A stretch of DNA of 64,000 bases from Chloroflexota bacterium (GTDB lineage: Bacteria; Chloroflexota; Anaerolineae; Aggregatilineales; UBA3940). A program made the position numbers and the translations under genes. Every line of letters begins with the position of its first letter. Within the stretch, counting starts at the first letter, position 1. The notes beneath the pieces were generated by a model. It made no database searches, was not told where the DNA came from, and saw nothing but the letters and a program-made list of their open reading frames with translations. Location of the stretch: NCBI GenBank assembly GCA_036679085.1, contig JAZIGM010000048.1, positions 12,002 through 76,001 on the forward strand, written 5' to 3'. This document shows positions 1 through 28,866 of the stretch, one piece after another.

Positions 1-1323
1 CCGCACATGGAAGGGGACCTGCGTGCTCGTGCGGATGACGAGCCGGTCGTCCTCGTCCCACCACGTCATGGCGATGTGCGGCTCGATGGGCGCCTGCTGC
101 ACCTTTGGGCTGTAGTACGTGTCCTCGAAGATGTAGTCCGCCTGCGCAAAGCCCGCCTCGACATCGCCAAGCTCCCAGTCGATCACCGCGGCGAGGTTGC
201 GATTGCGGTCCTCGATGTTCCAGCTTTCTTCCTCGTCGTGGATGATCGGCGCGCCCGGCTTCATCGCCTCACGCGGATCGAAGATCGCCGGCAGCACCTC
301 GTACTCCACTTCGATGAGGTCGAGCGCCCGCTGCGCGATCTCCTCGGTTTCGGCGGCGACGGCGGCGACGCGGTCGCCCACCCAGCGCACCTTGTAGTCC
401 AGGCTGTAGTTATCGTGCGGGCCCGGCTCCGGGTGCGACTGGCCCGCCGTCGTATAGGGGACGCGCGGCAGGTCTTTGTACGTCAGCACCGCGTGCACGC
501 CCGGCAACTCGCGGGCCTTGCTCACGTCGATGTTCTTGATCAGCGCGTGCGCGTGCGGGCTCCAGAGGATCTTCGCGACAAGCATCCCCCGGTGCTCGAT
601 GTCGTCGGTGAAGGCGGGCTTGCCCTGCACCAGCTTCAGCGCATCGACTTTGGGCTCCGGCTTGCCGACGTAATCCCGCGCCCGCTCCTCGCTCACGACC
701 ATCGTCGGCATCGGCGTGGTCTTGACGACCGTGCCGCCGTCGGCGGTGGGCACAGCCGGGGGCTCCTCCTGCTGGACGGGCTTGAACAGCCCCTCCGGCA
801 CAGGGACCGCCCCCTCCTGGAAGATGGGCGGGACTTCCTCGCCGCGCATGACTGCCGCCGCGCGGAGCACGGCCTGCACCGGTTTGAGATACCCGGTACA
901 GCGGCACAGCACGCCGCTCAGCGCCTCGCGGACCTCCGCCTCGGTCGGGTTGGGGTTCTCCTCAAGCAGCGCCTTGGCCGCCATGATCATGCCGGGCGTG
1001 CAGTACCCGCACTGGATGGCGCCCGTCTCGACAAACGCTTCCTGCAGGGCATGGAGCGGCTCGCTGCCGCGCCAGCCGCGCTGCTGCTGCCCGCCGACGC
1101 CCTCAATCGTCTCGACTTCGTGGCCCTCCACCTGGGCCGCCAGCATGACGCACGTGCTCACCGGCTTGCCATCGAGCAGCACCGTGCACGCGCCGCACTC
1201 GCCCGTCTCGCAGCCGTGCTTCACGCCGACGACGCCGTTCTCGCGCAGCACGTCGAGCAGCGTCTGGCTGGGGCGAGCGTCAAATGTCACATTCTCGCCG
1301 TTTAGCCTGAAGGTGATGTTCAT
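1..1323 (-). CDS. Xanthine dehydrogenase/aldehyde oxidoreductase family protein: fused N-terminal 2x[2Fe-2S] domains plus molybdopterin-binding large subunit (XdhD-like). N-terminal 441 codons only; runs off the left edge.
   Basis: Absent from the ORF track because it has no stop in the window. My minus-strand translation from ATG at 1323 reads MNITFRLNGENVTF..GCETGECGACTV..CGYCTPGMIMAAKALL.., followed by a hammerhead-like domain. The start overlaps the upstream stop (ATGA). Confidence 0.8.
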   Translation of the reverse strand, partial: MNITFRLNGENVTFDARPSQTLLDVLRENGVVGVKHGCETGECGACTVLLDGKPVSTCVMLAAQVEGHEVETIEGVGGQQQRGWRGSEPLHALQEAFVETGAIQCGYCTPGMIMAAKALLEENPNPTEAEVREALSGVLCRCTGYLKPVQAVLRAAAVMRGEEVPPIFQEGAVPVPEGLFKPVQQEEPPAVPTADGGTVVKTTPMPTMVVSEERARDYVGKPEPKVDALKLVQGKPAFTDDIEHRGMLVAKILWSPHAHALIKNIDVSKARELPGVHAVLTYKDLPRVPYTTAGQSHPEPGPHDNYSLDYKVRWVGDRVAAVAAETEEIAQRALDLIEVEYEVLPAIFDPREAMKPGAPIIHDEEESWNIEDRNRNLAAVIDWELGDVEAGFAQADYIFEDTYYSPKVQQAPIEPHIAMTWWDEDDRLVIRTSTQVPFHVR

Positions 1324-2165
1324 GATGCTGTCCCGCCTTCCGCCTCAGTCTCATACCCGATTCGTGCCAGTGCCGCCGACAGCGCGCGCCGGGCCACCAC
1401 CGGGGCAATCGCCAGGCGATAGTCCGGGCGGCCCAGGTAGTCCGACTTCACATCTGCCGGGTTGATGTCTGCTGTCAGCGCGTCCAGCCCGGAGAGGTCC
1501 GGCCACTGAATGTCGAAGTCGAGCAGCTTCAGGCCGCTTGCCAGCAGCCCGCCGACCGCCACGCGGGCGGAAAGCGTGCCGCTCTCGACCTCCCGCACGA
1601 CCGCAGCCGCGCTCACAATCGGCTGATCAACCGGGGTCCGCGCCACCTGCTCGTAGGCCGTGCCGACCTTGCCTTCGGCCAGGCGCAGCTCGACGGCGGT
1701 GATGAGGCGGCCCTGCAAGCCTCCGGCAGGCACGCCCGGCCAGGGGATCAGCTCATCCTGCCCGGTGACGGCCATCTCCGCGCCGAGCGCGGCCAGCGCC
1801 ACCCCGAGCGGGCTATCAACTTTGCCGGCAGCCAGCGTGCCGCCGATTGTCGCAACGTTGCGGATGTTCCAGCCGGCCATGCGGTGAGCGGCTTCCGCCA
1901 GCAGCCCGCCAAACGCATCGCCAAGCTGCTCGACGATCGTCTGCAGCCGCACCATTGCGCCCAGCCGCAGCACGCCGTCTTCCGTGTGAATGGTATCCAG
2001 CCCGAGTTCCGATAAGTCTACCACCGCCTCGACGTCGGGGTTGCGCTGCCCGACCAGGTCCGTCCCGCCTGCGAGCGGCACGGTGCGGATCTCCGGGCGC
2101 TGCAGGAGCCGTAGCGCCTCGTCAAGATCGCGCGGGCGATGGTATTCGCGCAGATTGTATAACAT
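1320..2165 (-). CDS. Molybdopterin-dehydrogenase FAD-binding subunit (CoxM/XdhB/YgfM-like)
   Basis: 281-aa ORF. MLYNLREYHRPRDLDEALRLL..VPLAGGTDLV matches the FAD-binding subunit pattern. Translationally coupled to the Fe-S/Mo subunit gene. Confidence 0.85.
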   Translation of the reverse strand: MLYNLREYHRPRDLDEALRLLQRPEIRTVPLAGGTDLVGQRNPDVEAVVDLSELGLDTIHTEDGVLRLGAMVRLQTIVEQLGDAFGGLLAEAAHRMAGWNIRNVATIGGTLAAGKVDSPLGVALAALGAEMAVTGQDELIPWPGVPAGGLQGRLITAVELRLAEGKVGTAYEQVARTPVDQPIVSAAAVVREVESGTLSARVAVGGLLASGLKLLDFDIQWPDLSGLDALTADINPADVKSDYLGRPDYRLAIAPVVARRALSAALARIGYETEAEGGTAS

Positions 2166-2276
2166 CTGTGACCTTCCTTGCTGTCACTGCTCAGCACCGT
2201 GATGCACAGGCTCAACCTGAGTGTAGCGTGTGGTCACCCCTTCCGGCCTGAGAGATAGGTATGGCATAAAACCGGG

Positions 2277-2837
2277 TCAGTCATGGGCCGCAGCCAGCTC
2301 CTCGTCCGAATAGACCCGCCAGCCGAGACGTTCTAGATCAGAATCAGATAGAGCGCCGCTGCCCGGCATCTCGACAAGCGTAACGTCAGCCTCCGCCGCA
2401 ACCGTGCCGTCGGGCAGGCGCAGTTCGCTGTGCGCCTGTACGATCCGGCCCCGGTCTTTCAACAGGCGTCCGATGAGTGTGAGTTCGGTGTTGGTGGGAA
2501 CCGGCTGCCGGTAGCGAACGTTCAGCTTGCCGGTGAACATGAAGCGGTTGGGGTTGGAGATCATCGGGGTGCGCCCGGCAATCTCGTCGAGCAGCGCCGC
2601 CACGATACCGCCATGCACAACGCCGGGATATCCCTGGTATGCCTCAGGCGCGGTGTAGCGTGCGCGCACCTCGTCCCTGCCGTTGTCCTCAAAGCTCACC
2701 TTGAGGCCGACGGGGCTCTCCAGCCCGCACACAAAGCAGTGGCGGGAGTTTGGCTGCCGGGTCCGCTCGTCGTGCTGATGCTCGGACTGGCTCACGGGGC
2801 ATACCTCGGCACTAGGGTGGGGTGAACCCCTCCCCAT
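2277..2837 (-). CDS. PaaI/hotdog-fold thioesterase; start codon uncertain
   Basis: 186-aa ORF with CFVCG..GLKV and GVVHGGIVAALLDE motifs typical of PaaI-type thioesterases. The N-terminal ~25 aa may not be translated. Confidence 0.65.
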   Translation of the reverse strand: MGRGSPHPSAEVCPVSQSEHQHDERTRQPNSRHCFVCGLESPVGLKVSFEDNGRDEVRARYTAPEAYQGYPGVVHGGIVAALLDEIAGRTPMISNPNRFMFTGKLNVRYRQPVPTNTELTLIGRLLKDRGRIVQAHSELRLPDGTVAAEADVTLVEMPGSGALSDSDLERLGWRVYSDEELAAAHD

Positions 2838-2890
2838 GCAGGCGGCTGTGCCACCTGCCGGGGAGAAATGATGATGCGATTTCCCCTGTC

Positions 2891-2915
2891 CCCCTCCCCT
2901 TTAGCGGGGAGGGGG
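2891..2915. repeat. GC-tract hairpin (cccctcccc / ggggagggg, 9-bp stem)
   Basis: Perfect inverted repeat read directly between the LLM oxidoreductase stop and the thioesterase start. Similar C/G-tract hairpins occur at 27679-27722, 34438-34465 and 45864-45886. Confidence 0.6.
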
Positions 2916-2954
2916 TGTATTGCAGGGGTGGAGTTGACGGATCCGTTCGCCGGT

Positions 2955-3953
2955 CTAGTTGACGGCGAACGCGTCGATCATGTACTTGACGTCCGGGCCA
3001 AGCGGGTACAGGATCGGGCAGGTGCAGCCGTTGTCGATGTACTCCTGCACCTTCGCGCGGCACTCCTCGGGCGAACCGGCGGCGGCAACCATCTGCACCA
3101 TCTCGTCGGGCACCAGCTCCATCGCCGACTCGATCTCTTCCTCGGTGGCGGGCCAGCCCAGCCGCGACTTGATTTCGTTGACCAGCGAGGCATCTGCGCC
3201 GAGCGCCTTGGCGAAGTGCGGCTGCTGCGCGAGATACTGCGTCACCATCTTCTTTGCGCCGTCCAGCCCGCGGCGGCGATCCGGGTCCATCGAGCACACG
3301 ACAAGCTGCGGGCGGTCGATCTCATCGATGCTGCGGCCTGCCCGCTTGGCACCGGCCTCGATCCGGTCCATCGCCTCAAGGTTGTACTCCGGCTTGACGA
3401 GGTAGTTAAGCACCACGCCATCCGCGATCTCGCCGCTCAGTTCCAGCATCTTGGGGCCGGTCGCGCCGATGTAGATCGGCACGTTGCGCGGACCGGTGTT
3501 GCCGTGTACCACATCCAGCTTGATGCCACGCACCTGCACGAACTCGCCCTCGAACGTCACCGTCTCTGCATTTAGCAGGCGGCGCACCACCTCGACCACC
3601 TCACGCATGGCCTGCAGCGGCTTGGTGCGCTGGATGCCGACATTGGAGGCAAGCGGGTCCCACCAGGCGCCGATGCCGCAGATAACGCGGTCGGGGGCCA
3701 GGTCGTCAAGGGTCAGGAAGGTAGCGGCGATCAGGGCGGCGTTGCGCGTCCAGTTGTTGATCACGCCGGAGCCAACCTTGATGCGCTCCGTGCAGGCGGC
3801 GAAGGCGGCCATCGGCACGATGGCATCGCGGACCAGGCGCGACTCTGCCTGCCATACCGCCTCGAAGCCCTTCTCCTCGGCATACTTCACATACTCAATG
3901 CCGTCGCGAATGGGGTGGGCATCCTGGAGATACAGTGCTACTCGGTCAATCAC
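2955..3953 (-). CDS. LLM-class (luciferase-like) F420-dependent oxidoreductase
   Basis: 332 aa. The N-terminus (..[23 protein letters not shown]..) and overall TIM-barrel pattern resemble Mer/LLM F420-dependent enzymes. Last gene of the F420 operon. Confidence 0.75.
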
Positions 3954-4007
3954 GGTGACATCCTTTCACAAAATACGGGTGTCGTTGGGAACAGAACAAC
4001 CCCGGCG

Positions 4008-4646
4008 CTAGACACTCACCAGCCAGCCCGGCTCATGCAGCTCGCGTTCGATCAGCATCTCGCGGTACAGATCCAGGTCGGCAGGGACGTCAACGTCAAG
4101 GCCGAGGGTTGGCGACTGGTACACGTACACGTCGGCACCCGCCGCCTCCGCAGCCGCACGGTGCTTTTCCAGACTGCCCTCGCCGAACTCGTACGGGAAC
4201 AGCCCCGGCGGCTTGATTAACATGGCATTGGTACCCTCTACCCGCCGGTCCGTGCCGATGACGACCACCGGCGGGTGTTTGGCCATGGCGACCATGTTCT
4301 CGATGTCCTCCGGCTGCAGCAGCGGAATGTCAGAGGCGATGAGCAGCACGCCGCTGACGTTCATCCGCATCACAACCTGAGTCGCCATGGTCAGGCTTGC
4401 GTTCAACTCGGGCGCGCCGCTCTCCTGCAGCGTCTGCGCGCCGAGCTGCCGGGCCAGCGACAGCGCGGCGCTGTCGCGGCTGACGACCATGGTACCCTTG
4501 ATGCTCTCGACCATGTTAAGGGTACGCAGGGTGCGTTCCAGCATTTCCCGGCTTAAAGACTCTCGTTGTTTGATATCCAGAACGGATGATAACCGACTTT
4601 TCGAACGGTTGAGTGGTTTGATTGGCACAATAGCCCAGATGCTCAC
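4008..4646 (-). CDS. cofC: 2-phospho-L-lactate (or PEP) guanylyltransferase CofC/FbiD
   Basis: 212 aa. IWAIVPIKPLNRSKSRL is the characteristic CofC N-terminus. 4-bp overlap with cofD. Confidence 0.8.
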   Translation of the reverse strand: MSIWAIVPIKPLNRSKSRLSSVLDIKQRESLSREMLERTLRTLNMVESIKGTMVVSRDSAALSLARQLGAQTLQESGAPELNASLTMATQVVMRMNVSGVLLIASDIPLLQPEDIENMVAMAKHPPVVVIGTDRRVEGTNAMLIKPPGLFPYEFGEGSLEKHRAAAEAAGADVYVYQSPTLGLDVDVPADLDLYREMLIERELHEPGWLVSV

Positions 4647-5593
4647 AGTTGATCTTCCTCTACCCAGTCCAAGAGGGCGATTGCGAGGTCTACTTTGTTG
4701 TCTAGCGTTTGCATGAGTGTCCGCCGCGCTGTGACCTTGACGCCCAGCGCTTCTATCGGGGCGAGCAAATCTCTATCGGCCTCGTCCAGTATAAACCCAT
4801 CCACCAGTTCTCGATAGTGCTGCACAACGCCGAGCGGGGAGATATCCACGCCCAGTTCGGACATCAATTTGGCCGTCGGGCCTTTGACCGCCTGCCCCGC
4901 AATAATGGGTGTCACGGCGATGCGCGGTACGCGCGCCCCGGCGATCCGCTGGCGGATACCGGGGATCGACAGGATGGGGTCGATGCTCAAAAACGGGTTG
5001 GACGGCCCGAACACAATCAGGGTTGCCGAGTCAAGCGCCTCGGCGACAGCCGGGCTCGGCTGCGCTGCCTCGCAGCCCTCAAAACGAATACGGTGGACCA
5101 CCGGCTGCCAGCGCTCCCGCACGAAATACTCCTGGAAGCCCAGGCTGCCCCGGTCCGTTTCTAATACGGTGCGGACCGCATCATCCGACATCGGCAGCAG
5201 CGTCGGGCCAACGCCGAGCGCCCGGCTCAACTGCCGCGTAATCTCGGTGAGCGTCCTGCCCTGGCGCAGCAGCGCGGTCCGCACCAGGCTGGTGCCGAGG
5301 TCGGCGTCGCCGAGGTTGAACCACGTCGGCCCGCCGTACCGCTCGACCATCTCCATCGCGCGGAAGGTGTCCCCTGCGAGGCCCCAGCCAAACTGCGGGT
5401 TCGCCACGCCGGCGAGCGTGTACATCAGCGTGTCCACATCCGGGGAGATGTGCAGACCCAGATGCTCGAAGTCGTCGGCGGTGTTGACGATCACCGTCAG
5501 CGACTCAGGCGGGAGCACATGGGCCAGCCCCAGGGCCAGCTTCGCCCCGCCGACCCCACCGACAAGCAGCACAACACGGTCGCGGACGCTCAT
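4643..5593 (-). CDS. cofD: 2-phospho-L-lactate transferase CofD/FbiA
   Basis: 316 aa. LVGGVGGAKLALGL..NTADDFEHLGLHISPDVDT are CofD hallmark motifs. Confidence 0.9.
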   Translation of the reverse strand: MSVRDRVVLLVGGVGGAKLALGLAHVLPPESLTVIVNTADDFEHLGLHISPDVDTLMYTLAGVANPQFGWGLAGDTFRAMEMVERYGGPTWFNLGDADLGTSLVRTALLRQGRTLTEITRQLSRALGVGPTLLPMSDDAVRTVLETDRGSLGFQEYFVRERWQPVVHRIRFEGCEAAQPSPAVAEALDSATLIVFGPSNPFLSIDPILSIPGIRQRIAGARVPRIAVTPIIAGQAVKGPTAKLMSELGVDISPLGVVQHYRELVDGFILDEADRDLLAPIEALGVKVTARRTLMQTLDNKVDLAIALLDWVEEDQL

Positions 5594-6213
5594 CGGAACA
5601 CCACCCTCGTCTCAAGTGGCTCGCGGGACCTGGTGCGCTCCTCTGCCGGGTAGCCGAGCGCGATCACGCCCTGCGGCTCGTAGTCAGGCGGCAGGTCGAG
5701 CGCTTCCCGCACCGCCGCCTGACAGAACAGGGGCGCACACATCCACACCGCACCCAGCCCCTCGGCGTGCGCGGCAAGCAGGAGGTTCTGGGCAGCCATG
5801 GCGACACCCTGTACCGCCATCTGGTGCTCGAAGGACTGCCGCCGCTCGTCAGGGTAAGTGTCCATGTCGGCCATCGTCAGGCACACGACGACCAGCGCGC
5901 CCGCGCCGGTCAGCCGCTGGCGGGAGCGGCCTGTATCCTTCGCGATAGCCTCCTCGGAAACACCATCCGCGCGGAGATCGGCTGCAAGCTGCGCGGCCAT
6001 TGTGTCGGCCAGCAGCCGCTTGCTTGCCTCGCTCTCCAGCACGACGAAGCGCCACGGCTGGCGGTTGTGCGCAGAGGGCGCCCACGTCGCCGCGTCGAGC
6101 AGGCGCAGCAGCACCTCGCGCGGCACCGGGCGTGGCTCAAACCGGCGGATCGAGCGCCGCGTATAGATCGCGTGGTACAGGTTTTCTGCCGTAATTTGTC
6201 CCGTCGATTCCAC
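5590..6213 (-). CDS. Nitroreductase-fold protein resembling the FbiB C-terminal domain (candidate dehydro-F420-0 reductase)
   Basis: 207 aa. RRSIRRF..APSAHNRQPWRF is the nitroreductase signature. Lies between cofE and cofD with a 4-bp overlap onto cofD. Confidence 0.7.
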   Translation of the reverse strand: MESTGQITAENLYHAIYTRRSIRRFEPRPVPREVLLRLLDAATWAPSAHNRQPWRFVVLESEASKRLLADTMAAQLAADLRADGVSEEAIAKDTGRSRQRLTGAGALVVVCLTMADMDTYPDERRQSFEHQMAVQGVAMAAQNLLLAAHAEGLGAVWMCAPLFCQAAVREALDLPPDYEPQGVIALGYPAEERTRSREPLETRVVFR

Positions 6214-6271
6214 GTTTGTGTTATCCGGCCCGCGGGAACCCGCAGCCGGCCCGTTGTTGATAATTCAGCCG

Positions 6272-7033
6272 CTACCGGTACAAATCCATCTCACGCGGGC
6301 GCACGAGGTCGGCGGCGCTCGCCTCCTCGTCGGCGGGGTACGTCAGGCCGCGCACAATCACAACCGGCATACCCTCTGCCGCCTGCCCCTGCACCAGCCC
6401 GGCAGCAGCGGCGATCTCATCCGCGAAGCCGACCTCCGTCACCTGCAGTGCCTCGCCGAACAGGTCCGGGCGGCCTCGCATATCCCACAGGGCGGGCAGC
6501 CCGGCGGCGCCAATCGCCACGCCGACCGTGCCCATGCGGAAGGGGCGTCCGTGACTGTCGCTGATGATGACCGCCACCGTCACCCCGAAATGTTCGTTGA
6601 GCGCCGCACGCAGCTCCCGCGCGGAGCGGTCCGGGTTCTCAGGCAGCAGCAGCCGCCACTCGCCGTCCGCCCGCGTGTTGGAGTGGTCCATCCCGGCATT
6701 CGCGCAGACAAAGCCCAGCCGGTGCTCGGCGATGAGCACGCCGCGCCGCATGCGCGAAATACCGGCGGATTCGCTCAGGATGAGCGCGACCTCACGCGGG
6801 TCTTTGCCGACCTCGGCGGCGATGCGCCGCGCCTCCTCGTCCGGCTCGACGGTCGCCAGGTCCACCCAGCGCCCCTCTGCCTTCGAGACGATCTTCGAGG
6901 TCACGACGACGACGTCGCCATCCACGAGGGTCTGGCCGCTCGCCTTGAGCGCCCCGGCGATGATGGCGGCCAGGTCATCCCCCGTTTCGATGAGGGGGAT
7001 GCCCGGCACGCCGATGAGCTGCAACTGCGTCAT
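6272..7033 (-). CDS. cofE: Coenzyme F420-0:L-glutamate ligase CofE
   Basis: 253 aa. [29 protein letters not shown] are CofE motifs. Confidence 0.9.
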
Positions 7034-7036
7034 GAA

Positions 7037-7720
7037 CTAACCGATCCCGGTGATGCGGATGCCGGCGCTCTTCACCTTATAGCGCTTGTTCACGCCGATG
7101 AGCAGCGCGGTCAGGCTCTCAGCGACGATAGCGTTCGCCAGAGGCCCGGCGTCAATGCCGCGTGTGCCCACCGCTTCGACGAGCTTGATGACTTCCTGCC
7201 GGGCTTCCTCGTCGTCGCCGGTCACGAGCACATCGCAGTCAACTTCATGATCCAGATGGTTGAGGTGCACCGCCGATACATTCTGGAAGGCGGACACCAC
7301 GCGCACGCCCTCGCCGAGGAAGGCCTGCGCTTCCTCCGCCGCCGTACGACCTTCAGGCAGCGAAACGACCCACACCGGCGGGGAGAGCGGGACGGTCACA
7401 TCGACGAGGATCTTCCCCTGCACCTCGTTGTACACGCTCTCCAGCGTCGGTCGGTGCGCCGAGTAGGGCACGGAGAGCACGACAATGTCGGCTTCGCGCG
7501 CGGCGTCCGGGTTCGTCATCCCGCGCACGACGTCCTTGCCCAGTTTTTCGTTTAGCTCTGCTGCGGCCCGCTCCGCCTTTTCCTGCTGGCGCGAGCCGAT
7601 GATCACATTGTAACCCTGATGCGCCCAGCGTAAAGCCAGCCCACCACCTTCACTACCGGTTCCGCCAAGCACAGCGATGGTGGGAAGATTGTTGTTCTCT
7701 GGCACGGTGTTGTACTCCAA
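7037..7720 (-). CDS. fno: NADPH-dependent F420 reductase (Fno/NpdG)
   Basis: 227 aa. IAVLGGTGSEGGGLALRWA Rossmann motif of the NpdG family. The track start is TTG; a GTG 15 nt downstream preceded by GGAG is an alternative start. Confidence 0.85.
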   Translation of the reverse strand: MEYNTVPENNNLPTIAVLGGTGSEGGGLALRWAHQGYNVIIGSRQQEKAERAAAELNEKLGKDVVRGMTNPDAAREADIVVLSVPYSAHRPTLESVYNEVQGKILVDVTVPLSPPVWVVSLPEGRTAAEEAQAFLGEGVRVVSAFQNVSAVHLNHLDHEVDCDVLVTGDDEEARQEVIKLVEAVGTRGIDAGPLANAIVAESLTALLIGVNKRYKVKSAGIRITGIG

Positions 7721-7779
7721 TCTGTTGTCGAAGCTCTTGTGTCTGTCGCTAGTTGCAGATGTTCACGCCAGGGACTGTG

Positions 7780-7788
7780 ATTATATCA
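7780..7788 (-). promoter_or_regulatory. Extended -10 promoter element TGATATAAT for the fno-cofE-...-LLM operon
   Basis: The minus strand reads ..ggatgTGATATAATcacag.. about 60 nt upstream of the fno start. Perfect TGnTATAAT. Confidence 0.45.
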
Positions 7789-7854
7789 CATCCACTATGT
7801 CCCCTGCTCGATTCGTTGCCCGCCGCTAACCGACGGAACTCCCGCCCCTCGTCA

Positions 7855-8022
7855 GGGAGCCGCGAAGCTCATTCGCGACGGGTTGGAGCCCTCGCGTCAC
7901 AACTCGCCAGGGAGCCGCGACGTTTAGTCGCGGCGGGTATCACCCCCACTCCTGTGCAGTTAGCTTCGCCTACTGTACGCCCTCATCCCGCATCGTAGGG
8001 AAGCGCGAATAAACTTCGCGGC
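7855..8022. repeat. Three copies of the GCCGCGA(A/C)-N5/6-(T/G)TCGCGGC hairpin repeat family
   Basis: Copies at ~7859-7880 (gccgcgaagctcattcgcgac), 7914-7934 (gccgcgacgtttagtcgcggc) and 8003-8022 (gcgcgaataaacttcgcggc), in the fno/ssnA intergenic region. Confidence 0.8.
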
Positions 8023-8050
8023 AGACTTTTTAGCGGCGTTTTTTTGCGCC

Positions 8051-9418
8051 TCAGCCCGGCAGCGTCGCCTTTGCGTATTCCTCGTAGCGAGCCCAGACCT
8101 CCGGCACGATCTCCCGCGCCCGCGCGGCGATGGCCTCCTCGTCGAGCGTCAGCAGCTTGCGGTCACGCATGAGCACCTCGCCGCCGACGATGGTCGTCGT
8201 GAACATCGACGCCTCGACGCCGAAGATGATGTGCCAGGGCAGGTTGCCCGCCGTGAGCGGCGTGATCGGGTGGTAATCCACCAGCATGATGTCGGCTGCC
8301 GTGCCCGGAACCAGCAGGCCCGGCGCGGTGTCACCGAAGAAGACCTTTGCCAGCGCCGCGTTGTTATGGATGGCCATCTGCACGATGTCCATGCCGTTGG
8401 CGCGGCGCGGGTCGCGGTGCGTGACCTTGTGCAGAAGGTACGACGCCTTCCAGTCCTCGTACATGTTGTTCGTGAAGCCGTCGTTGCCGAGGCACACCGG
8501 GATACCCAGCCGCAGCATCCCCTCGATGTCCGCCGCGCCGACGGCGTTGTTCATGTTGGAGCGCGGCTGGTGCGTCACCCACGTGCCCGTGTCGCGCAGA
8601 AGCTCCGCCTCGCGCATGTCGATGTGCACGGCATGTGCAACGATGGTCTTTTCACCCAGGATGCCGAACTCGTGCAGGCGGTCAACCACCCGCTTGCCGT
8701 ACCTGGTCAGGCTGTCATACTCGTCCGCCTCATGCTCGGCTACGTGGATGTGGAAGCCGGTGTCCAGCCCTTCGGCAGCCTCAGCGCAGGCGGCAAGCGT
8801 CTCGTTCGAGATGCTCAGACTGGCGTGCAGCCCGAAGGTCGCGGCGATGCGGTCATGCCTGGACGCCTCCTTCAGGAAGCGCACGTTCTCCTCGATGCTC
8901 TCGCGGGCTTTGTCCGGCCCGTAGCGGTCGGTCACCTCGTAGCACAGCACGGCGCGCAGCCCTGCCTCGTTCACCGCCTCGGCGATGATGTCCAGCGAGC
9001 CGAGCAGGGCGTTGGGGCTGGCATGGTGGTCGATGAGCGTGGTCGTGCCGTGCTTGATGGCATCCACGAGCAGCACGAGCGCGCTGTAGCGCACGGCTTC
9101 CTCGTCAAGCGCCTGGTCAAGCGGCCACCACAGCCGCTCCAGAATCTCAGGGAAGTCCTTGGGCGCCGGGCCGGGGATCGCCATCCCGCGTGCGAACGCG
9201 CCATAGAAGTGCGTGTGCGCGCAGATGTTGCCTGGCATGATGAGCTGCCCGCGCGCGTCGAGGCGCTCCGCATCGGGGTACTTCGCCTCCAGGTCGGCGG
9301 CGGTGCCAACCTCGCCAATTAACCCGTTCTCGACATAAACCGCGCCCTTCTCGATCAGGTCGGCGCCCGGCTGCCAGGTGACAACCGTTCCATTTGTGAT
9401 CAGCAATGGACCAGCCAT
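8051..9418 (-). CDS. ssnA: SsnA-type putative aminohydrolase (amidohydrolase superfamily)
   Basis: Matches remembered E. coli SsnA motifs: MPG..CAHTHFY, LWWPLDQALDEE, IDHHASPN, RSNMNN. Start moved to internal ATG 9418, preceded by GGGAGAG; the track ORF starts at GTG 9472. Confidence 0.85.
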   Translation of the reverse strand: MAGPLLITNGTVVTWQPGADLIEKGAVYVENGLIGEVGTAADLEAKYPDAERLDARGQLIMPGNICAHTHFYGAFARGMAIPGPAPKDFPEILERLWWPLDQALDEEAVRYSALVLLVDAIKHGTTTLIDHHASPNALLGSLDIIAEAVNEAGLRAVLCYEVTDRYGPDKARESIEENVRFLKEASRHDRIAATFGLHASLSISNETLAACAEAAEGLDTGFHIHVAEHEADEYDSLTRYGKRVVDRLHEFGILGEKTIVAHAVHIDMREAELLRDTGTWVTHQPRSNMNNAVGAADIEGMLRLGIPVCLGNDGFTNNMYEDWKASYLLHKVTHRDPRRANGMDIVQMAIHNNAALAKVFFGDTAPGLLVPGTAADIMLVDYHPITPLTAGNLPWHIIFGVEASMFTTTIVGGEVLMRDRKLLTLDEEAIAARAREIVPEVWARYEEYAKATLPG

Positions 9419-9475
9419 GTGTGTACTCTCCCGTGTACTACTGTTATCGACTGTGCGGATGCTCTGTACCACCCA

Positions 9476-10165
9476 TCAAAGCTGTGAATCGCAGCCTGCC
9501 ACCTTCGCGCTCGCCAGAAGCCCACCGCGCGCCCGGATCGCCGCCTCTACTGCGTCGAGATCCGCCGCGCTGTCACCGAGCAGCGCCAGCGCCCCGGCGG
9601 GCCGCTCCTCCGCCGCGCAGAGCATCACCGGCCCCCTGCGGCACTGTATTAGCAGGTCAACCTGATAGGTGCGCTGCCCTTCGCGGACCGTTACGCTGCG
9701 CTCGGGCTGGATGCCCCGCGCTTTCAATTCCTGATACAGGTAGTCGAGCGTGACATCGTCGGTGCGGTAGAGGTCGTTGACCTCCGTCGCGGTGACGAAG
9801 CGCTCCCACGTCGTCTGGATGAAAGTGATGCGCCGCCAGCGAACACTCACGATCGGCGGGACCTTGCGCTTGAGCGGGCCAAGCTGCAGCTTGAAGTAGT
9901 GGTCACCCGCGCGCGGATGATCGGGCTCATCCGGCAGCAAGTCCACGCGGCGCACTAACTCATGGCCAGTGCGCCGCGCGTAGAAATGTATCGCCCAACG
10001 AAGGTCGGGGCTGAACTTCTTTGTGAAGTAGAAGGCCACGTACTCAGCGTGAATACCGTCCGGCGCATGCCGAACCGGAATGCGGTACCAGTGCTGGTCC
10101 CGTGCGATGTCGAAGTCACGCGGGTCGGGCATCACGCCGACGAGTACGCGGTCTTCCGGATACAT
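9476..10165 (-). CDS. Hypothetical protein (229 aa from ATG 10165), operonic between the PLP enzyme and SsnA
   Basis: Well-formed non-repetitive protein (MYPEDRVLVGVMPDPRDFDIARDQHWYRIPV..). The ATG overlaps the upstream stop (TGATG). I recognise no family. Confidence 0.6.
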   Translation of the reverse strand: MYPEDRVLVGVMPDPRDFDIARDQHWYRIPVRHAPDGIHAEYVAFYFTKKFSPDLRWAIHFYARRTGHELVRRVDLLPDEPDHPRAGDHYFKLQLGPLKRKVPPIVSVRWRRITFIQTTWERFVTATEVNDLYRTDDVTLDYLYQELKARGIQPERSVTVREGQRTYQVDLLIQCRRGPVMLCAAEERPAGALALLGDSAADLDAVEAAIRARGGLLASAKVAGCDSQL

Positions 10166-11583
10166 CACTCGCCGTGGATGTGGTGCTTCTTGCGGAAGGC
10201 GATGATCTGCTCGTCGATCTCGCTCACCATCTTCTGGTGAGCCTCCCACCAGGCCGGATCGCGCTGCGCGTCGAGTTCCTCGACCGTCTTGCCCTGCTGC
10301 TCAACCCAGGTGTAGTACTTGAGGTTGTGCCAGCGCTGGCGCGTTTCCTCAGTGCCCTCGCAGATCCAGTCGGTCTTCTGGCCGAGGAAGGTCGAGGACA
10401 TGATGTGGGCAGCCCGCACCTCGGTCATCTCGCCCTCTTCCTGGCGCAGCCAGTCCATCACCGAGTAGTAGCGGTCGATGGCGTCGGTGAAGATCGTGAC
10501 GATCACGTCGTCCTTGCCCAGGCCGTAGTACTTGGCCGTCTTGATCGCGCCGAGCGTATTGCAGACGCTCGAAATACCCATGACACCGCTGAGCTTCTCG
10601 ACCGTCTCCTCGGGCACGCCGTAGTACTTCGCCAGCGTCGCCTTGCCGACCGGGTCGGTAACGAGCGCCAGGCCGCGCACCGACTCCATGTCGTCGATGC
10701 ACATGATGGCGTCCATGTTCAGCACGTGGTGAACCCACGTGACGTGCTTGTCGCCGATGCCCTCGATGCGGTGCGAGCCATAGCCGTTGTTGTAGAGCGT
10801 CGGGCACTGGATCGGCTCCAGACCGACGATCTTGTGATCCGGCCAGACCTGCTTGAGCCGGTCGCCCGCCGCAATCGTGCCGCCGGAGCCCATCGCCGAG
10901 ACGAAGGCCGAGATCTTGCCCACGCCGATGCCCCGCTCCTTGAGCACATCGGCCAGCTCGACGATGGTGTTGCCCGTCACGTAGTAGTGGAAGCGATAGT
11001 TGCCCATCACTTCAAACTGGTTGAGCACGCGCACCTTGGGGTCCTTGCGCAGCTCCCAGGTCTTGTCATAGATCTCCTTGACGTTGCTCTCCGAGCCGGG
11101 CGTGCCGATCACGCGCGCGCCGAGCCGCTCGATGTACTCGAAGCGCTCGCGGCTCATATCCTGCGGCAGCACGACAATGCCGTCGAAGCCCATGCGGCAG
11201 CCGACGAACGCGCCGCCGATGCCGTAGTTGCCGGTTGAAGGCCACACCAGCGTGTGGATCGCCGGATCCACCTCGCCGGAGAGCTCCTTCTCGACCACCA
11301 CAGAGTACGCCGCACCAACCTTGTGGCTGCCAGTCGGGAAGTCGGTGCTGTACAGCGCGACGATGTTCGCGTCAACGCCGGTCAGCTCCTTCGGCAGAAC
11401 AACGTAGCGGATCTGGTTGTTCTCGTCCTTCCAGGTGATGTTGAAGAGGTTGATCGGGTCGAGTGGGTCTTCTTTCCTGGCCCGCAGCGCCTGGGCGCGC
11501 ACATCCGGATTGATCTTTTCCGGGTGGAGCATCTCGTCGAAGGTGGGGCCGGTGATAATCTTGGTGCCAATCTGTTCTGCCAT
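10165..11583 (-). CDS. PLP-dependent enzyme, fold type II (cysteine synthase/CBS-like), ~80-aa N-terminal extension, function unknown
   Basis: 472 aa. PTGSHKVGAA (candidate PLP lysine), WPSTGNYGIGGAF and SAMGSGGT motifs align with the CysK/CBS family layout. Confidence 0.7.
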   Translation of the reverse strand: MAEQIGTKIITGPTFDEMLHPEKINPDVRAQALRARKEDPLDPINLFNITWKDENNQIRYVVLPKELTGVDANIVALYSTDFPTGSHKVGAAYSVVVEKELSGEVDPAIHTLVWPSTGNYGIGGAFVGCRMGFDGIVVLPQDMSRERFEYIERLGARVIGTPGSESNVKEIYDKTWELRKDPKVRVLNQFEVMGNYRFHYYVTGNTIVELADVLKERGIGVGKISAFVSAMGSGGTIAAGDRLKQVWPDHKIVGLEPIQCPTLYNNGYGSHRIEGIGDKHVTWVHHVLNMDAIMCIDDMESVRGLALVTDPVGKATLAKYYGVPEETVEKLSGVMGISSVCNTLGAIKTAKYYGLGKDDVIVTIFTDAIDRYYSVMDWLRQEEGEMTEVRAAHIMSSTFLGQKTDWICEGTEETRQRWHNLKYYTWVEQQGKTVEELDAQRDPAWWEAHQKMVSEIDEQIIAFRKKHHIHGE

Positions 11584-11668
11584 AGCTATTCTCCTCTACA
11601 GTCAGAATAAAGGTTGGTGTTCGCGCAACTATCTGTGAGTGCTCGACAGTCGTTGTTGCCAGTTTCGA

Positions 11669-12688
11669 TTATTCGCCGCGCTGGCTCTCGTAGTAGTGCT
11701 CCGGCGGCAGCGTTTGGGCCGCCCGCGGCCTGGGCGATGGACGCCGCTCCATACCGAGCGTGCTCGCGACGAGGTAGAGCGGGCGGCCTTTCACCTCGTT
11801 ATAGATGCGCCCCAGGTACTCCCCGATGATGCCCAGCGAGATGAGCTGCACCCCACCCAGGAAGAGCACCATGATGAGCGTCGTCGCCTGCCCCTGCAGC
11901 GGGGCGGCATCGGTGAAGAGCCGCAGGTAGACCACCACCACAATGCCCACTGCGCTGAGCGCGGCGATGGTAAAGCCCAGATACATGGCAAGCTGCAGCG
12001 GGAAGTACGAGAACCCGGTGATCGCATCCCAGGCGAGGCGTAGCATCTTCCTCAGCGTGTACTTGGTCTCGCCCGCGTAGCGCTCGTGACGCTCGTACTC
12101 AACCCCGGTCTGCCGGAAGCCGGCCCATGCCACCATGCCACGCACGAAGCGGTGTCGCTCGCGCATCGCGTTCACGACGTCCACCACCTGCCGGTCCATC
12201 AGCCGGAAGTCGCCCGTATCAAGCGGGATGTTGATATCCGTGATGCTCGACAGGATGCGGTAAAAGGCCGCCGCGGTGAAGGTCTTGAACCACGTCTCAC
12301 CCTCCCGCTTGGCGCGCACGGCATACACGACCTGATAGCCCTCCCGCCACTTCGCGATGAGGTCCAGAATCACCTCGGGCGGGTCCTGCAGGTCGGCGTC
12401 GATGAGCACCACCGCGTCGCCGCTGGCATAGTCCATCCCGGCGGTGACGGCAGCGCTGTGCCCGAAGTTGCGCGCAAAGTGGATCGCGCGCACGTGCTCC
12501 GGGTCGTGCTCATAGAGCTCGTTGATCAGCTCCATCGAGCCGTCGGTACTGCCGTCATTGACCAGCACCAGTTCCCAGCTTACGCCGGCCTGCGCCATCA
12601 CCTCGGAGACGCGGCGGTGCAACTCGTGGATATTGCCAGCCTCGTTATAGATTGGTGCGACGATTGATAGGACAGGAGTCATGAGCAA
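11669..12688 (-). CDS. GT2 polyprenyl-phosphate glycosyltransferase (DPM1/ArnC/GtrB-like) with C-terminal TM helices
   Basis: 339 aa. [28 protein letters not shown] are GT-A motifs, with two hydrophobic C-terminal helices. Confidence 0.8.
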
Positions 12689-12745
12689 ACACTTTGCCGG
12701 CCACGCGGCCTCAGCGTCCCTCCCAGCACGGGCTATTGTAACCGC

Positions 12746-14008
12746 TTACGAGCCAAAAATCCCGTTTATCACCTGGGAGGCTTCGGCGAGGTCCGGCGAG
12801 ACCTTCGGTGCCTGCCGCACAGCCTTCTGAGCCGCCGCCACGTCCTTCAAGCCGTTGCCGGTGATGAGCGCGACGATCTCCTCGTCGGGCGCAAACACGC
12901 CCTCCTTCGCCGCCTTGAGCAGCCCGGCATACGTCGCGGCTGCCGCCGGTTCGGCAAACACGCCGGTGGCTTGCGCCAGCTTTGGGATGGCGGCCAGGAT
13001 CTCCTCGTCGCTGACGGTCAGGTAGATGCCGCCCGTCTCGGTGACGGCGCACATCGCCTTGACGCGGTCACGCGGGAGCCCGGCGCTGATGCTGTCCGCG
13101 ATGGTATTCGTCTTGATAGGCTGCATCTCAGCCGGGTCGAGGCCCTCTTTCCAGGCGTTGTACAGCGCCGCCGAACCTTCCGCCTGCACGCCGATGAGGC
13201 GCGGCACGCGGTCGATCCAGCCCAGCGCATACATGTCCTTCAGGCCCTTATGCACCCCGGCGATGATATTGCCGTCGCCCACGCTGACGATGATCGTGTC
13301 CGGCGCGCGGAACAGCCCGCGCTTGCCGGTCAACTGCTCGCAGATCTCGTAGGAGACGGTCTTTTTGCCCTCCGCCGTGTACGGGTTGTAGCCCGTGTTG
13401 CGGCAGTACCAGCCATACTTCTCCGTCGCGGCGAGGCACAGCTCGAACGCGTCGTCGTAGGTGCCGTCCACAAGCAGGACGTGCGCCCCATAGACGAGAA
13501 GCTGTGTGATCTTGGCCTCCGGCGCGCTGGCAGGCACGAAGATCACCGTCGGCATCTGCACGCTGGCGGCAAGGCCGGCGAGCGCAGCGGCGGCGTTGCC
13601 CGTGCTCGCCGTCGTCACGATCTTGCGGCCCTCTGCCCTGGCCTTGGCTACCAGCAGCGCGCTGGCCCGGTCCTTGAGCGAGGCGGTCGGGTTGCGCCCG
13701 TCGTCCTTGATCCAGACCTTCCCGACGCCGATCTCTTTGGCGACGTTGTCCGCGCGGTAGAGCGGCGTATCGCCCACGAGGAGCGGGGGCGTCGGGGCAT
13801 TGTAGGCGATAGGCAGCAGCGCCTTGTAGCGCCATATGCCGCGCACGTCGAGCAGCCCATCTTCCTGCAGGCGGTCGGCAATCAGCTCATAGTTGTACTG
13901 CACGTCGAGATTGCCGTCATTACCGTGGTCCGGGCAGACGTACTCGACCTCGCCGGGCGCATAGGTTTTACCGCAGATCGTACACTTCAAGCCGGTGACG
14001 TGTTCCAT
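12746..14008 (-). CDS. thrC: Threonine synthase(-like) PLP enzyme with N-terminal Zn ribbon
   Basis: 420 aa. CTICGKTY..YVCPDHG ribbon, NPTASLKDRAS PLP-lysine motif, TASTGNAAAALA. Confidence 0.7.
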   Translation of the reverse strand: MEHVTGLKCTICGKTYAPGEVEYVCPDHGNDGNLDVQYNYELIADRLQEDGLLDVRGIWRYKALLPIAYNAPTPPLLVGDTPLYRADNVAKEIGVGKVWIKDDGRNPTASLKDRASALLVAKARAEGRKIVTTASTGNAAAALAGLAASVQMPTVIFVPASAPEAKITQLLVYGAHVLLVDGTYDDAFELCLAATEKYGWYCRNTGYNPYTAEGKKTVSYEICEQLTGKRGLFRAPDTIIVSVGDGNIIAGVHKGLKDMYALGWIDRVPRLIGVQAEGSAALYNAWKEGLDPAEMQPIKTNTIADSISAGLPRDRVKAMCAVTETGGIYLTVSDEEILAAIPKLAQATGVFAEPAAAATYAGLLKAAKEGVFAPDEEIVALITGNGLKDVAAAQKAVRQAPKVSPDLAEASQVINGIFGS

Positions 14009-14047
14009 GATGTGGAAGTTTGCCTCTTTTCCTTACCGTCAGTCCGC

Positions 14048-15067
14048 TTATTCTTCGATGAAAGCCGTGCCGAGCCCGGCGGGTGGTGCAACGCGCAGCA
14101 GGTTGCCGAGCGGGCGCTGCGCCCACTTCGGGGCGAGCAGGATAAGCCGATGGATGGCGTCGCTACCGACGAGCAGCAGCACACCCAGCATCAGCAGCCA
14201 CTGGAGCGAGTTGAACAGCACAACCGGAACTGCCGGGAACGACGTTTGAAGCACCTGCGCCAGCGCGCGGGTGATCCCGTACAGGATAGCGCCGAACGCC
14301 GCGCGGAAGGGCCGCCAGCCGCCAAAAATGACGATGGCGAGCGCGATCCAGCCGATGCCCAGGATGTGGTTATCCGACCAGCCGATCTTGATGTCGAGCG
14401 AGTAGGCCGCGCCGCCCAGGCCAACGAGCGCGCCGCCGATCGCCGTGTACAGGTAGCGCACCCGGTTTACGGTGATGCCGCGCACAAACGCCGCCTCAGG
14501 GCGCTCGCCCACGCCGCGCATCTGCAGGCCGGGCTGTGTGCGGTACATCCACCACCAGGCGGCAATGACGACCAGGAAGCTGAAGTAGATCAGCAGGTCG
14601 TGCCGGAACAGCATCGGCCCGAGCACGGGGATATCCGACAGGATCGGGATGGGCATGTGCTTGACACGCGGGCCGGGCAGACGGGTGAAGCCCTGCCCCA
14701 GGAAGTTCGCCATGCTGGTGAGCAGCATCGTCAGCACAAAACCGATGGCAACCTGATCGCGTTTCAGGCGGATGCTGCCCCACGCGATGAGGAGTGCCAC
14801 CAGCGCCCCCAGCAGCGCGGCGACAGCCAGCCCGGCCATCACCGGCAGGAAGTGCCCGGTGATACCCGCGTCCGTCAGCCGGCCGCCGACCACGTACGCC
14901 ACGACAAACCCGCCCATCGCCGAGAACATCATGCTCCCGTCCAGCGACAGGTTGATCACGCCGGCGCGCTCGGTGATCGTCTCGCCCGTCACGGCCAGCA
15001 GCAGCGGCGCGCTCTGGGCCATGATCGAGGCCAGAATGCGAACAAACTCGGTATCGTTGACGCTCAT
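14048..15067 (-). CDS. ABC transporter permease, BMP/nucleoside type (YufQ/NupQ-like)
   Basis: 339 aa, multi-TM, with ..AVTGETITERAGVINLSLDGSMM.. 4-bp overlap with the upstream permease. Confidence 0.8.
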   Translation of the reverse strand: MSVNDTEFVRILASIMAQSAPLLLAVTGETITERAGVINLSLDGSMMFSAMGGFVVAYVVGGRLTDAGITGHFLPVMAGLAVAALLGALVALLIAWGSIRLKRDQVAIGFVLTMLLTSMANFLGQGFTRLPGPRVKHMPIPILSDIPVLGPMLFRHDLLIYFSFLVVIAAWWWMYRTQPGLQMRGVGERPEAAFVRGITVNRVRYLYTAIGGALVGLGGAAYSLDIKIGWSDNHILGIGWIALAIVIFGGWRPFRAAFGAILYGITRALAQVLQTSFPAVPVVLFNSLQWLLMLGVLLLVGSDAIHRLILLAPKWAQRPLGNLLRVAPPAGLGTAFIEE

Positions 15068-17816: not shown

Positions 17817-17932
17817 AAGGTAGCGCTTTCTGTCGCTAGTGCCAGGTGTCCGTTATGAGTGACATCAGGGGGTGAGAGAGAGCGGCCTGATCAGCCGCTC
17901 TCTCCGCCCATCGGCTCAATGATGCAGGCTCG

Positions 17933-27384: not shown

Positions 27385-27678
27385 TAGCAGCAGCTCCTTG
27401 CAGACTGTTGGGGGTGATGAGTTGGCTCTAAGCGACTCAATGTGACCTGCGAGCCGTGTCCGCGTGGCTCGCGGTTGTGGTTCCGGTCTGCCTCAAAAAA
27501 AGGTGCCTCAAAGGGCAGGGAAAGCCCCCTGCTCATATCTGATAGGTCCTCTTCAGGTATCCGGGGAATGAAGCAGGATGCCCGGCTAGATGCTCTAGGC
27601 TCGCTATTGGCTCTATGTTACCCGCCGTTGCCAGAAGTGCAAACTTATGTCAGGTGTTCCACCATGTCATTTGTCTCA

Positions 27679-27722
27679 GCCCTCCCCCGGCAGTGCCCCA
27701 GTGAGATTGCCAGGGGGAGGGC
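27679..27722. repeat. Long GC-tract hairpin (gccctcccccggca / tgccagggggagggc) 20 nt downstream of the folD stop
   Basis: Inverted repeat read directly. No U-tract follows on the minus strand. Confidence 0.6.
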
Positions 27723-27742
27723 CGTTACATGGTCTGGCTGTG

Positions 27743-28651: not shown

Positions 28652-28866
28652 GGTTACCTCCGTATCAGTGACGCGTGAATCGATTGGAAGGAGTATGTGT
28701 CCCCACTAGCATAACACGTGCACTGATTCCTGCCACACTGCGGAATGTCATATTTGACTGCGCCATCGTTCGTATATCTGGGGTTCCCCCTGCTCCACAC
28801 CCCCTCATCCCACAAGTCTGCCCCCTCCCCTTGTCCCGAACCCGCCCGCATGCCATACTATGGCCC

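Follow-up and report, generated by a model that had tools for sequence, protein, structure and literature searches.

The PLP gene pair, its coupled neighbour and SsnA

The stretch of DNA analysed here (the window, 64,000 nucleotides [nt] of contig JAZIGM010000048.1 from an Anaerolineae genome of the phylum Chloroflexota) carries on its minus strand three consecutive genes, which encode a 472-aa pyridoxal phosphate (PLP) enzyme of fold type II, a 229-aa protein and the amidohydrolase SsnA. A glycosyltransferase family 2 (GT2) gene and a second PLP gene, similar to threonine synthase (ThrC), lie just upstream (Table 1). All five genes are present as described in an initial reading of the sequence alone (the sequence-only reading), which took the first three to be a translationally coupled trio and to hold candidates for missing steps of a pathway. 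Our analysis suggests that the two PLP enzymes probably take the place of the lyase YgeX at the end of a purine degradation pathway, and that the 229-aa protein descends from a nuclease and may be an accessory partner of the first of them.

Its gene content places the region at the centre of a reductive (2,8-dioxopurine) cluster for the degradation of purines and uric acid, in the F420-type version of Anaerolineae. SsnA scores above both of its family cut-offs (534.7 bits against 444 for NCBIfam NF005540 and 517.5 against 455.5 for TIGR03314), which identifies it as the orthologous ring-opening amidohydrolase, and its gene clusters, in the window as in relatives, with hyuA, ygeY, the carbamoyltransferase and carbamate kinase genes and a molybdoenzyme gene of the xanthine dehydrogenase (XDH) type. 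Family scans further identified NADPH-F420 reductase, CofE and a Bmp-type ATP-binding cassette (ABC) transporter in the window, while in relatives the same gene order runs on into CofD/CofC, the F420-dependent luciferase-like reductase and XDH. In E. coli and Clostridium, SsnA, HyuA, YgeW/YqeA and YgeY lead to 2,3-diaminopropionate, which YgeX converts to pyruvate in the proven last step; a D-specific hydantoinase branch delivers the D-configuration, and albizziin is an intermediate of the pathway (Li et al. 2025). The same study reported an F420 luciferase-type reductase in place of YgfK in the SsnA clusters of Chloroflexota, and its neighbourhood analysis scored “YgeX” only as Pfam PF00291.

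The TGA of the 472-aa PLP gene and the ATG of the 229-aa gene have one base in common (TGATG at 10167-10163), in line with the sequence-only reading, and translational coupling, as predicted from this overlap, is confined to these two genes. SsnA stands outside: its ATG (9418) is preceded by its own ribosome-binding site (GGGAGAG) and separated from the 229-aa gene by 57 nt, not 58 as first counted. The spacer (9419-9475) contains no promoter-like or terminator-like site, such sites show no excess over chance anywhere in 7000-14500, and an Rfam search of the whole window gave no match, hence no riboswitch candidate. The start of the 229-aa open reading frame (ORF) was assigned to the ATG rather than to an upstream GTG because all homologues begin MYPEDRV; the resulting alternative of 257 aa is not supported. 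Since the ORF has 3302 homologues and shows dN/dS values of 0.09-0.23 against relatives, in the range found for the 472-aa PLP gene, SsnA and other neighbours, it is, by these measures, a real gene kept under purifying selection.

Candidates for the last step of the pathway

In the 472-aa enzyme, K88 of the motif PTGSHKVGAA, pointed out from the start, aligns with the PLP lysine of cysteine synthases. Also retained are the Asn loop S116-T117-G118-N119 (STGNYG), the phosphate loop G232-S233-G234-G235-T236 (GSGGT) and the GISS serine, which occupies the position of the pyridine-N-contacting Ser272 of CysK; together with the lysine, these elements are the predicted machinery for aminoacrylate chemistry. 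Nevertheless, the protein scores only 121.8 bits on the cysteine synthase A equivalog TIGR01139, about one third of the cut-off (350.95), and the sequence-only reading was right to set it apart from ordinary cysteine synthases. It is also far from diaminopropionate ammonia-lyase (17.2 bits against 276 for PRK08206, 15.9 against 274 for TIGR01747) and misses every NCBIfam cut-off; an identity as an OrtB-type thiolase was rejected for want of an NCBIfam OrtB match. Throughout the clade, SHKVG is found where CysK has SVKDR, and an invariant GIGDKH where CysK has the entrance loop GIGAGF. When the AlphaFold2 (AF2) model (pLDDT 88) was compared with the PDB using Foldseek, the best matches were the cores of beta-cyanoalanine synthase, O-acetylserine sulfhydrylase (OASS) and cystathionine beta-synthase (CBS), with an E value of 5e-19, 25-30% identity and target-normalised TM scores of 0.75-0.83, whereas the N-terminal helices (residues 15-48) and the C-terminal helices (373-466) had no counterpart there. 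Over CysK, the N-terminal extension amounts to about 45-50 aa, not to the 80 or so initially claimed, and a C-terminal extension of about 90 aa had been overlooked.

Relatives of this enzyme are encoded by 277 GTDB species genomes. Identity within the clade is 66-91% across Chloroflexota, Blastocatellia, Heliomicrobium, Symbiobacteriaceae and Sumerlaeota (from the listed GTDB loci) and Syntrophorhabdales and Latescibacteria (from metagenomic contigs), the nearest relative of the window's copy being found in a metagenome-assembled genome of Anaerolineae (91%). Judging from motifs, profiles and model, the 472-aa protein is thus a member of a separate, strongly conserved clade of CysK/CBS-fold PLP enzymes with helical extensions at both ends, and not an ordinary cysteine synthase.

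The second PLP enzyme matches the threonine synthase of Aquifex (2zsj) with an E value of 1.7e-64 and has the motifs PTxSxKDR and STGN. Its score is above one threonine synthase cut-off (208.5 against 167.1 bits for TIGR00260), below another (282.3 against 303 for PRK08197) and far below that of diaminopropionate ammonia-lyase (65.4 against 276 for PRK08206). In a comparison of 52 clade members with four solved threonine synthases (2zsj, 6cgq, 1uim and 2d1f; T. thermophilus numbering), five residues that are invariant in those four were found to be replaced in the clade, including the window's copy: T88A, N154T, S155G/A and N188D in 52/52 sequences and R160T in 50/52. With Thr in place of Arg and Asp in place of Asn, a cationic leaving group would be accommodated better than an anionic one, and we regard this protein as a threonine-synthase-derived enzyme with a predicted rebuilt leaving-group site and as the conserved partner of the 472-aa enzyme.

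A GT2 gene stands between the two PLP genes only in Chloroflexota, where this gene for a putative membrane polyprenyl-phosphate glycosyltransferase and a small gene split a pair that adjoins elsewhere. The small gene, located between the GT2 and PLP genes in most Chloroflexota loci (8277-8555 in locus L001, 9761-9988 in L010), encodes a soluble, charged, helical protein of 75-95 aa; it is absent from the window, L013 and L015.

To survey the neighbourhoods, ORFs were called in 91 related loci and classified against the proteins of the window and of the E. coli cluster. The ThrC-like gene lies at most 3 kb from the 472-aa gene in 43 of the 68 loci with at least 1.5 kb on both sides, and it adjoins that gene directly in Latescibacteria, Syntrophorhabdales, Heliomicrobium and Blastocatellia. 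Of the 43 loci flanked by at least 8 kb, 35 have one or more purine-cluster genes around the 472-aa gene, and in at least six phyla the pair is accompanied by genes for XDH, SsnA, the carbamoyltransferase and carbamate kinase. As SsnA and the F420 reductase of other phyla are 64-70% identical to the window's copies, the module as a whole appears to have been transferred between phyla. With regard to YgeX, neither the window, as the sequence-only reading had stated for a YgeX-type lyase, nor the approximately 100 related loci contain an ORF for which it is the best match, and a tblastn search of the window with the E. coli protein returned only the two PLP (PALP) genes, both weakly (25% identity and E 3e-11 for one, E 5e-4 for the other).

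Every step of the published pathway but the last has a candidate gene in the window, and this last step is a beta-elimination on a 3-substituted alanine, i.e., CysK-type chemistry; for both reasons, the 472-aa and ThrC-like enzymes probably replace YgeX in the conversion of 2,3-diaminopropionate to pyruvate. The sequence-only reading had already named the PLP enzymes as candidates for the terminal step, a reasonable proposal since both genes accompany purine-degradation genes across phyla. The pair would take up the 2,3-diaminopropionate delivered by YgeY or the carbamoyltransferase and release pyruvate and two NH3 through a PLP-aminoacrylate. A need for two enzymes may arise from the D-configuration of the pathway product, as CysK- or ThrC-type enzymes normally act on L-substrates; the two could be isomer-specific lyases, or one could catalyse an epimerising step and the other the lyase step.

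Several points weigh against this assignment. The 472-aa enzyme stands alone in unrelated neighbourhoods in 8 of the 43 well-flanked loci, the absence of ygeX covers 64 kb here and about 10 kb elsewhere, and the ThrC-like protein still passes the TIGR00260 cut-off. Moreover, a single YgeX would be replaced by two PLP enzymes, and the role of T88, N154, S155, R160 and N188 as the phosphate site for O-phosphohomoserine is our assumption, for which no confirmation was found in the literature consulted. The neighbours of the 472-aa gene outside purine clusters are miscellaneous and give no clue to its substrate.

The 229-aa protein and the competing explanations

The AF2 model of the 229-aa protein (pLDDT 89) consists of two domains. 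In Foldseek searches, the top PDB matches of the N-domain, which is basic (isoelectric point, pI, 9.5), are all McrB-N, YTH, ASCH or EVE domains, with marginal E values (1.4e-3 for 6n0s to 4e-2) and probabilities of about 0.84-1.0, mostly above 0.9, and the matches in a viral library are ASCH/EVE proteins (best E 3.9e-4). The sequence-only reading had recognised no family here and looked to structure and profile searches for one: Foldseek did give a PUA-like fold, but searches of Pfam, NCBIfam, PDB sequences and PADLOC with the whole protein were empty. None of 20 family members has a Pfam match in the N-domain, for which the binding of modified bases is a putative function. The label “catechol 2,3-dioxygenase-like”, which JGI attaches to some homologues, was rejected, fold and profile searches giving it no support.

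An exhaustive search for the family recovered 738 representatives. By phmmer, residues 5-199 of the window's protein match the family member P0325 with an E value of 1.5e-29, and P0325 and 119 relatives among the matches listed carry PF04480 and PF18741, neither of which matches the 229-aa protein itself even at E ≤1. In distant members, the reader domain is followed by an intact DUF559/REase_MTES_1575 (Vsr-like) nuclease domain, and some are fused to UvdE, RadC-JAB, HRDC or HEAT repeats; such relatives, whether standalone or fused, occur in unrelated contexts and were not found near purine genes in the loci examined. Aligned with them, the window's protein and every PLP-linked copy lack a nuclease core of about 27 aa (IExDGdxWH...DNxRNN...GWxVLRF), and some copies keep the N-domain only (144-146 aa). 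The reader-domain residues W26, Y27, R28, F45, Y90 and R111 are conserved family-wide, DNA-nuclease relatives included. On the strength of alignment and model, the 229-aa protein is identified as a nuclease-dead descendant of endonucleases that combine a PUA-like reader with a Vsr/DUF559 domain.

In about 40 Chloroflexota loci, a dead gene of this type comes next after the PLP gene (median gap 12 nt), and the two stay together without purine genes nearby, e.g., beside aldolase, peptidase and CoA-transferase genes. On the other side, a major facilitator superfamily (MFS) transporter gene intervenes between the 229-aa gene and ssnA in L001 (10744-12111) and L003 (10709-12070). The sequence-only reading had proposed to test the co-occurrence of all three genes and the conservation of the 229-aa ORF beside ssnA or PLP genes: the link to the PLP gene holds, that to SsnA does not, and gene order thus ties the 229-aa gene to the former and not to the latter. 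Furthermore, the clusters with the PLP pair and SsnA in Heliomicrobium, Blastocatellia, Latescibacteria, Syntrophorhabdales and Ca. Amarolinea lack this gene but are otherwise identical. Because of this absence from the same clusters in other phyla, the protein would be dispensable for the 472-aa enzyme and rather an accessory or regulatory partner, and it is unlikely to be a pathway enzyme; of the missing catalytic step or SsnA subunit that had been proposed in it, there is no sign.

For the 229-aa protein we propose a non-catalytic role: it would bind bases or nucleic acids and act as a partner or regulator of the 472-aa enzyme. CysE, CymR and CdiA-CT dock into CysK by their tails, and in 81 of 119 close homologues of the 229-aa protein the C-terminus is exactly GGP[LI]M[VI]D[LV]P[LIF]-COOH, ten residues past an invariant GG. 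By analogy, its hydrophobic tail might dock in the PLP active site and so link the substrate level to a binding or regulatory output. This is the mechanism we prefer, but it is weakly supported and only a lead, since the window's own tail is longer and atypical (...GGLLASAKVAGCDSQL); in addition, the relatives of 144-146 aa have no tail, and one degenerate relative (39% identity) is not next to a PLP gene.

Four other explanations have to be weighed. The two PLP genes could encode ordinary cysteine and threonine synthases that merely sit in the operon, with YgeX encoded elsewhere in the genome, as the CysK-like fold and PLP motifs of the one, the TIGR00260 score and Aquifex match of the other and the confinement of our ygeX search to 64 kb would allow. 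Yet a CysK score of one third of the cut-off, SHKVG and an invariant GIGDKH in place of SVKDR and GIGAGF, five threonine-synthase-invariant residues uniformly replaced in the ThrC-like clade and, in at least six phyla, the presence of XDH, SsnA, the carbamoyltransferase and carbamate kinase beside the pair leave this explanation little chance of being right. The 472-aa enzyme might instead act on another beta-substituted alanine: it could release urea from albizziin (3-ureidoalanine) by elimination or provide, as a cysteine desulfhydrase, the sulfide for the molybdenum cofactor of XDH. Albizziin is indeed a pathway intermediate, the CysK/CBS clade includes desulfhydrases (Fn1055 is among the Foldseek matches), and the 472-aa gene directly follows the XDH gene in Heliomicrobium and Blastocatellia. 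However, YgeY or a second carbamoyltransferase is already there in the clusters to remove the 3-ureido group, none of the genes classified was identified as a urease gene, and cofactor sulfuration is normally carried out by fold-type-I desulfurases, so that we give this activity a low probability as well.

For the 229-aa protein, the version of the sequence-only reading, i.e., a subunit that SsnA or the PLP enzyme requires for catalysis or structure and that supplies the missing step, can draw on the one-base overlap with the PLP gene, on the pairing in about 40 loci, which extends beyond purine clusters, and on the fact that some PUA-like (ASCH) proteins, such as E. coli YqfB, are small amidohydrolases. 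It is nonetheless improbable, given that the five groups named above have the cluster without the gene, that an MFS gene can separate it from SsnA, that its conserved residues are common to DNA-nuclease relatives and that genes for all hydrolytic steps of the published pathway are already present in the window. Alternatively, the protein may still be active on nucleic acids, as a binder of lesions or modified bases or as a DNA-binding regulator of the operon that senses aberrant purines (8-oxoguanine, xanthine), without acting with the PLP enzyme. Its ancestry among DNA nucleases fused to UvdE, RadC or HRDC, the basic N-domain and the residues shared with intact nucleases speak for such a role, as do the 8-oxoguanine deaminase of the cluster, a gene of the uracil-DNA-glycosylase (UDG) family in one relative and the lack of any regulator gene recognised by family scans among the cluster genes from XDH to 8-oxoguanine deaminase. 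Against it stand the mid-operon position, translationally coupled behind an enzyme gene, a linkage specific to the PLP gene even away from purine genes, and copies without the C-domain; besides, no shared operator motif was identified in the intergenic regions of the cluster beyond one 12-mer and the spacer repeats described below. All in all, a nucleic-acid role apart from the PLP enzyme is rather unlikely, but deserves some weight.

To the joint explanation, in which the PLP pair replaces YgeX and the 229-aa protein is a dead reader-nuclease serving as partner or regulator of the 472-aa enzyme, we assign a probability of about 0.5. A bolder version remains doubtful: the disarmed base-reader nuclease would be a metabolite-gated switch on the diaminopropionate PLP enzyme, comparable to CymR on CysK, the tail being displaced by substrate so that purine flux is turned into a nucleic-acid-binding output (regulation, or the handling of damaged purines, e.g., 8-oxoguanine), while, independently, the CysK-like/ThrC-like pair would form an unrecognised two-enzyme last step.

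Neighbouring features and comparison with known systems

Table 1. Position and identification of the features discussed, in coordinates of the window
Feature	Position	Strand	Basis
472-aa fold-type-II PLP enzyme gene, distinct CysK/CBS-like clade	10165-11583	-	family scans, alignments, AF2 and Foldseek
229-aa protein gene	9476-10165	-	ORF call and homologue starts
229-aa protein, N-domain (residues 1-135), predicted PUA-like barrel (ASCH/EVE/YTH/McrB-N type)	9761-10165	-	AF2 model, Foldseek
229-aa protein, C-domain (residues 136-229), predicted Vsr/DUF559 (PD-(D/E)XK) nuclease remnant and disordered tail	9476-9760	-	alignment with intact relatives
Spacer, 57 nt, with GGGAGAG ribosome-binding site before SsnA ATG	9419-9475	-	sequence
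ssnA orthologue, 455 aa, ring-opening amidohydrolase of the reductive uric-acid pathway	8051-9418	-	NCBIfam; function from Li et al. 2025
GT2 polyprenyl-phosphate glycosyltransferase-like gene (PgfS/ArnC-like)	11669-12688	-	family scans
ThrC-derived PLP enzyme, 420 aa, N-terminal Zn ribbon	12746-14008	-	family scans, alignment
Upstream cluster part: XDH FAD subunit, 4HBT thioesterase, F420-dependent luciferase-like reductase (2955-3953), fbiB-C/cofD/cofC/cofE, npdG	1320-7720	-	family scans; names from gene order and Pfam labels in relatives
Carbamate kinase	19438-20391	-	NCBIfam scan
Carbamoyltransferase	20430-21413	-	NCBIfam scan
YgeY	21610-22812	-	NCBIfam scan
Adenine deaminase	22890-24599	-	NCBIfam scan
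D-hydantoinase (HyuA)	24609-25994	-	NCBIfam scan
8-oxoguanine deaminase	26017-27384		family scan

Some further features of the window and its relatives are worth recording. In the 330-nt spacer between SsnA and npdG (7721-8050), a 36-nt element is repeated directly (7848-7883 and 7903-7938; 83% identity), and a GC-rich hairpin core is present in both copies; a third, related copy is inverted (8004-8022). The spacer also has a perfect palindrome, TGTGATATAATCACA, that overlaps a TATAAT. Possible functions are a promoter/operator of the npdG-cof genes and a REP-like element. A 12-mer, ACTAGCGACAGA, with CAyCTGsm in front of it, recurs close upstream of npdG (in 7721-8050) and of the ABC ATPase gene (in 17817-17932) and may be a shared regulatory or leader element. 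Clusters (the window, L004, L008, L015, L022 and L078) tend to have either YgeY, which removes the 3-ureido group by hydrolysis, or a second carbamoyltransferase paralogue with 27-29% identity to the first; in L078, this paralogue takes the place where the window has YgeY. This alternation suggests that some organisms cleave both ureido groups phosphorolytically and gain a second ATP. In several relatives, as in the window (2277-2837), the genes for the XDH FAD subunit and the F420 luciferase-like reductase have a conserved 4HBT-type thioesterase gene between them; the published pathway has no thioester step. In a related purine cluster (L010), the UDG-family gene mentioned above (5862-6449) is flanked by the genes for the carbamoyltransferase and carbamate kinase; with the 8-oxoguanine deaminase of the window, it points to a possible connection between purine catabolism and the handling of damaged bases. 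Divergent from the cluster, on the plus strand, are genes for a 343-aa protein with no NCBIfam match at E ≤1e-10 (27647-28678) and for a second cyclic amidohydrolase, similar to dihydroorotase and allantoinase, which scores under all equivalog cut-offs and over that of the generic pyrC_multi domain (28675-30156).

It was not until 2025 that the reductive uric-acid pathway was elucidated, and this for E. coli and Clostridium only. From gene content, the cluster with the PLP pair would be a variant of this pathway, with putative biochemical roles, in which two non-orthologous PLP enzymes are used by Chloroflexota and, by transfer, by members of Acidobacteriota, Bacillota and other phyla; the published survey would have overlooked this variant because any PF00291 protein was counted as “YgeX”. 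If true, this would complete the F420-type pathway, which is found in Anaerolineae that abound in the environment and in wastewater, extend the CysK and ThrC families by two new reaction specificities and provide alternative parts for engineered urate-degrading strains. As for the 229-aa protein, a nuclease of the restriction or repair type that was inactivated and yet kept under purifying selection in a metabolic operon would be unusual.

Compared to the E. coli/Clostridium cluster (xdhD-ygfM, ygfK, ssnA, hyuA, ygeW, yqeA, ygeY, ygeX), the window has the same SsnA, HyuA, YgeY, carbamoyltransferase, carbamate kinase and XDH-type molybdoenzyme, together with purine deaminases and a transporter. 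It differs by an F420-dependent luciferase-like reductase with F420 biosynthesis genes in place of YgfK and by the CysK-like and ThrC-like pair without YgeX, whereas the GT2 gene, the small helical protein and the 229-aa protein are additions of Chloroflexota. Modification-dependent restriction endonucleases consist of a PUA-superfamily reader and a nuclease domain (PMC7897488, PMC6765204). The 229-aa family resembles such reader-nucleases (e.g., the EVE-HNH enzyme VcaM4I) and Vsr/DUF559 proteins in its PUA-like N-domain and in other branches with intact DUF559/MTES_1575 domains, but the 229-aa protein has no nuclease core and no PADLOC match and is fixed in a catabolic operon by a PLP enzyme, not in a defence or repair context. 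With the CysK partner complexes (CysE-CysK, CymR-CysK and CdiA-CT-CysK), the present system would have in common an enzyme of CysK fold and a non-homologous protein with a flexible tail ending in a conserved hydrophobic residue, and peptide complexes (3tbh, 5xoq) are among the structural neighbours of the 472-aa enzyme; the known tails end in Ile, while those of the 229-aa family mostly end in Leu or Phe, the window's being atypical, and the likeness is no more than an analogy.

As to the enzymes themselves, the 472-aa protein shares with OASS, CBS and beta-cyanoalanine synthase the core fold, PLP lysine, Asn loop, GSGGT loop and GISS serine, but it is only 25-30% identical to them, has SHKVG and GIGDKH and carries extensions of about 45 aa (N-terminal) and 90 aa (C-terminal). 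It shares fold type II with YgeX and would have the same place in the logic of the pathway, at the sole step without another candidate gene here; neither PLP enzyme is an ortholog (17 and 65 bits on PRK08206, for the 472-aa and ThrC-like enzymes respectively, against 276), and at the Asn loop YgeX has TDGNHG where both have STGN. The Asp of this YgeX motif we take to be Asp120, the base for the D-isomer. Finally, the ThrC-like enzyme matches short-type threonine synthases in its similarity to 2zsj and its PTxSxKDR and STGN motifs but departs from them by T88A, N154T, S155G, R160T and N188D, an extra N-terminal Zn ribbon and a purine-cluster context; a ThrC-derived enzyme that acts on a new substrate is already known in cysteate synthase.

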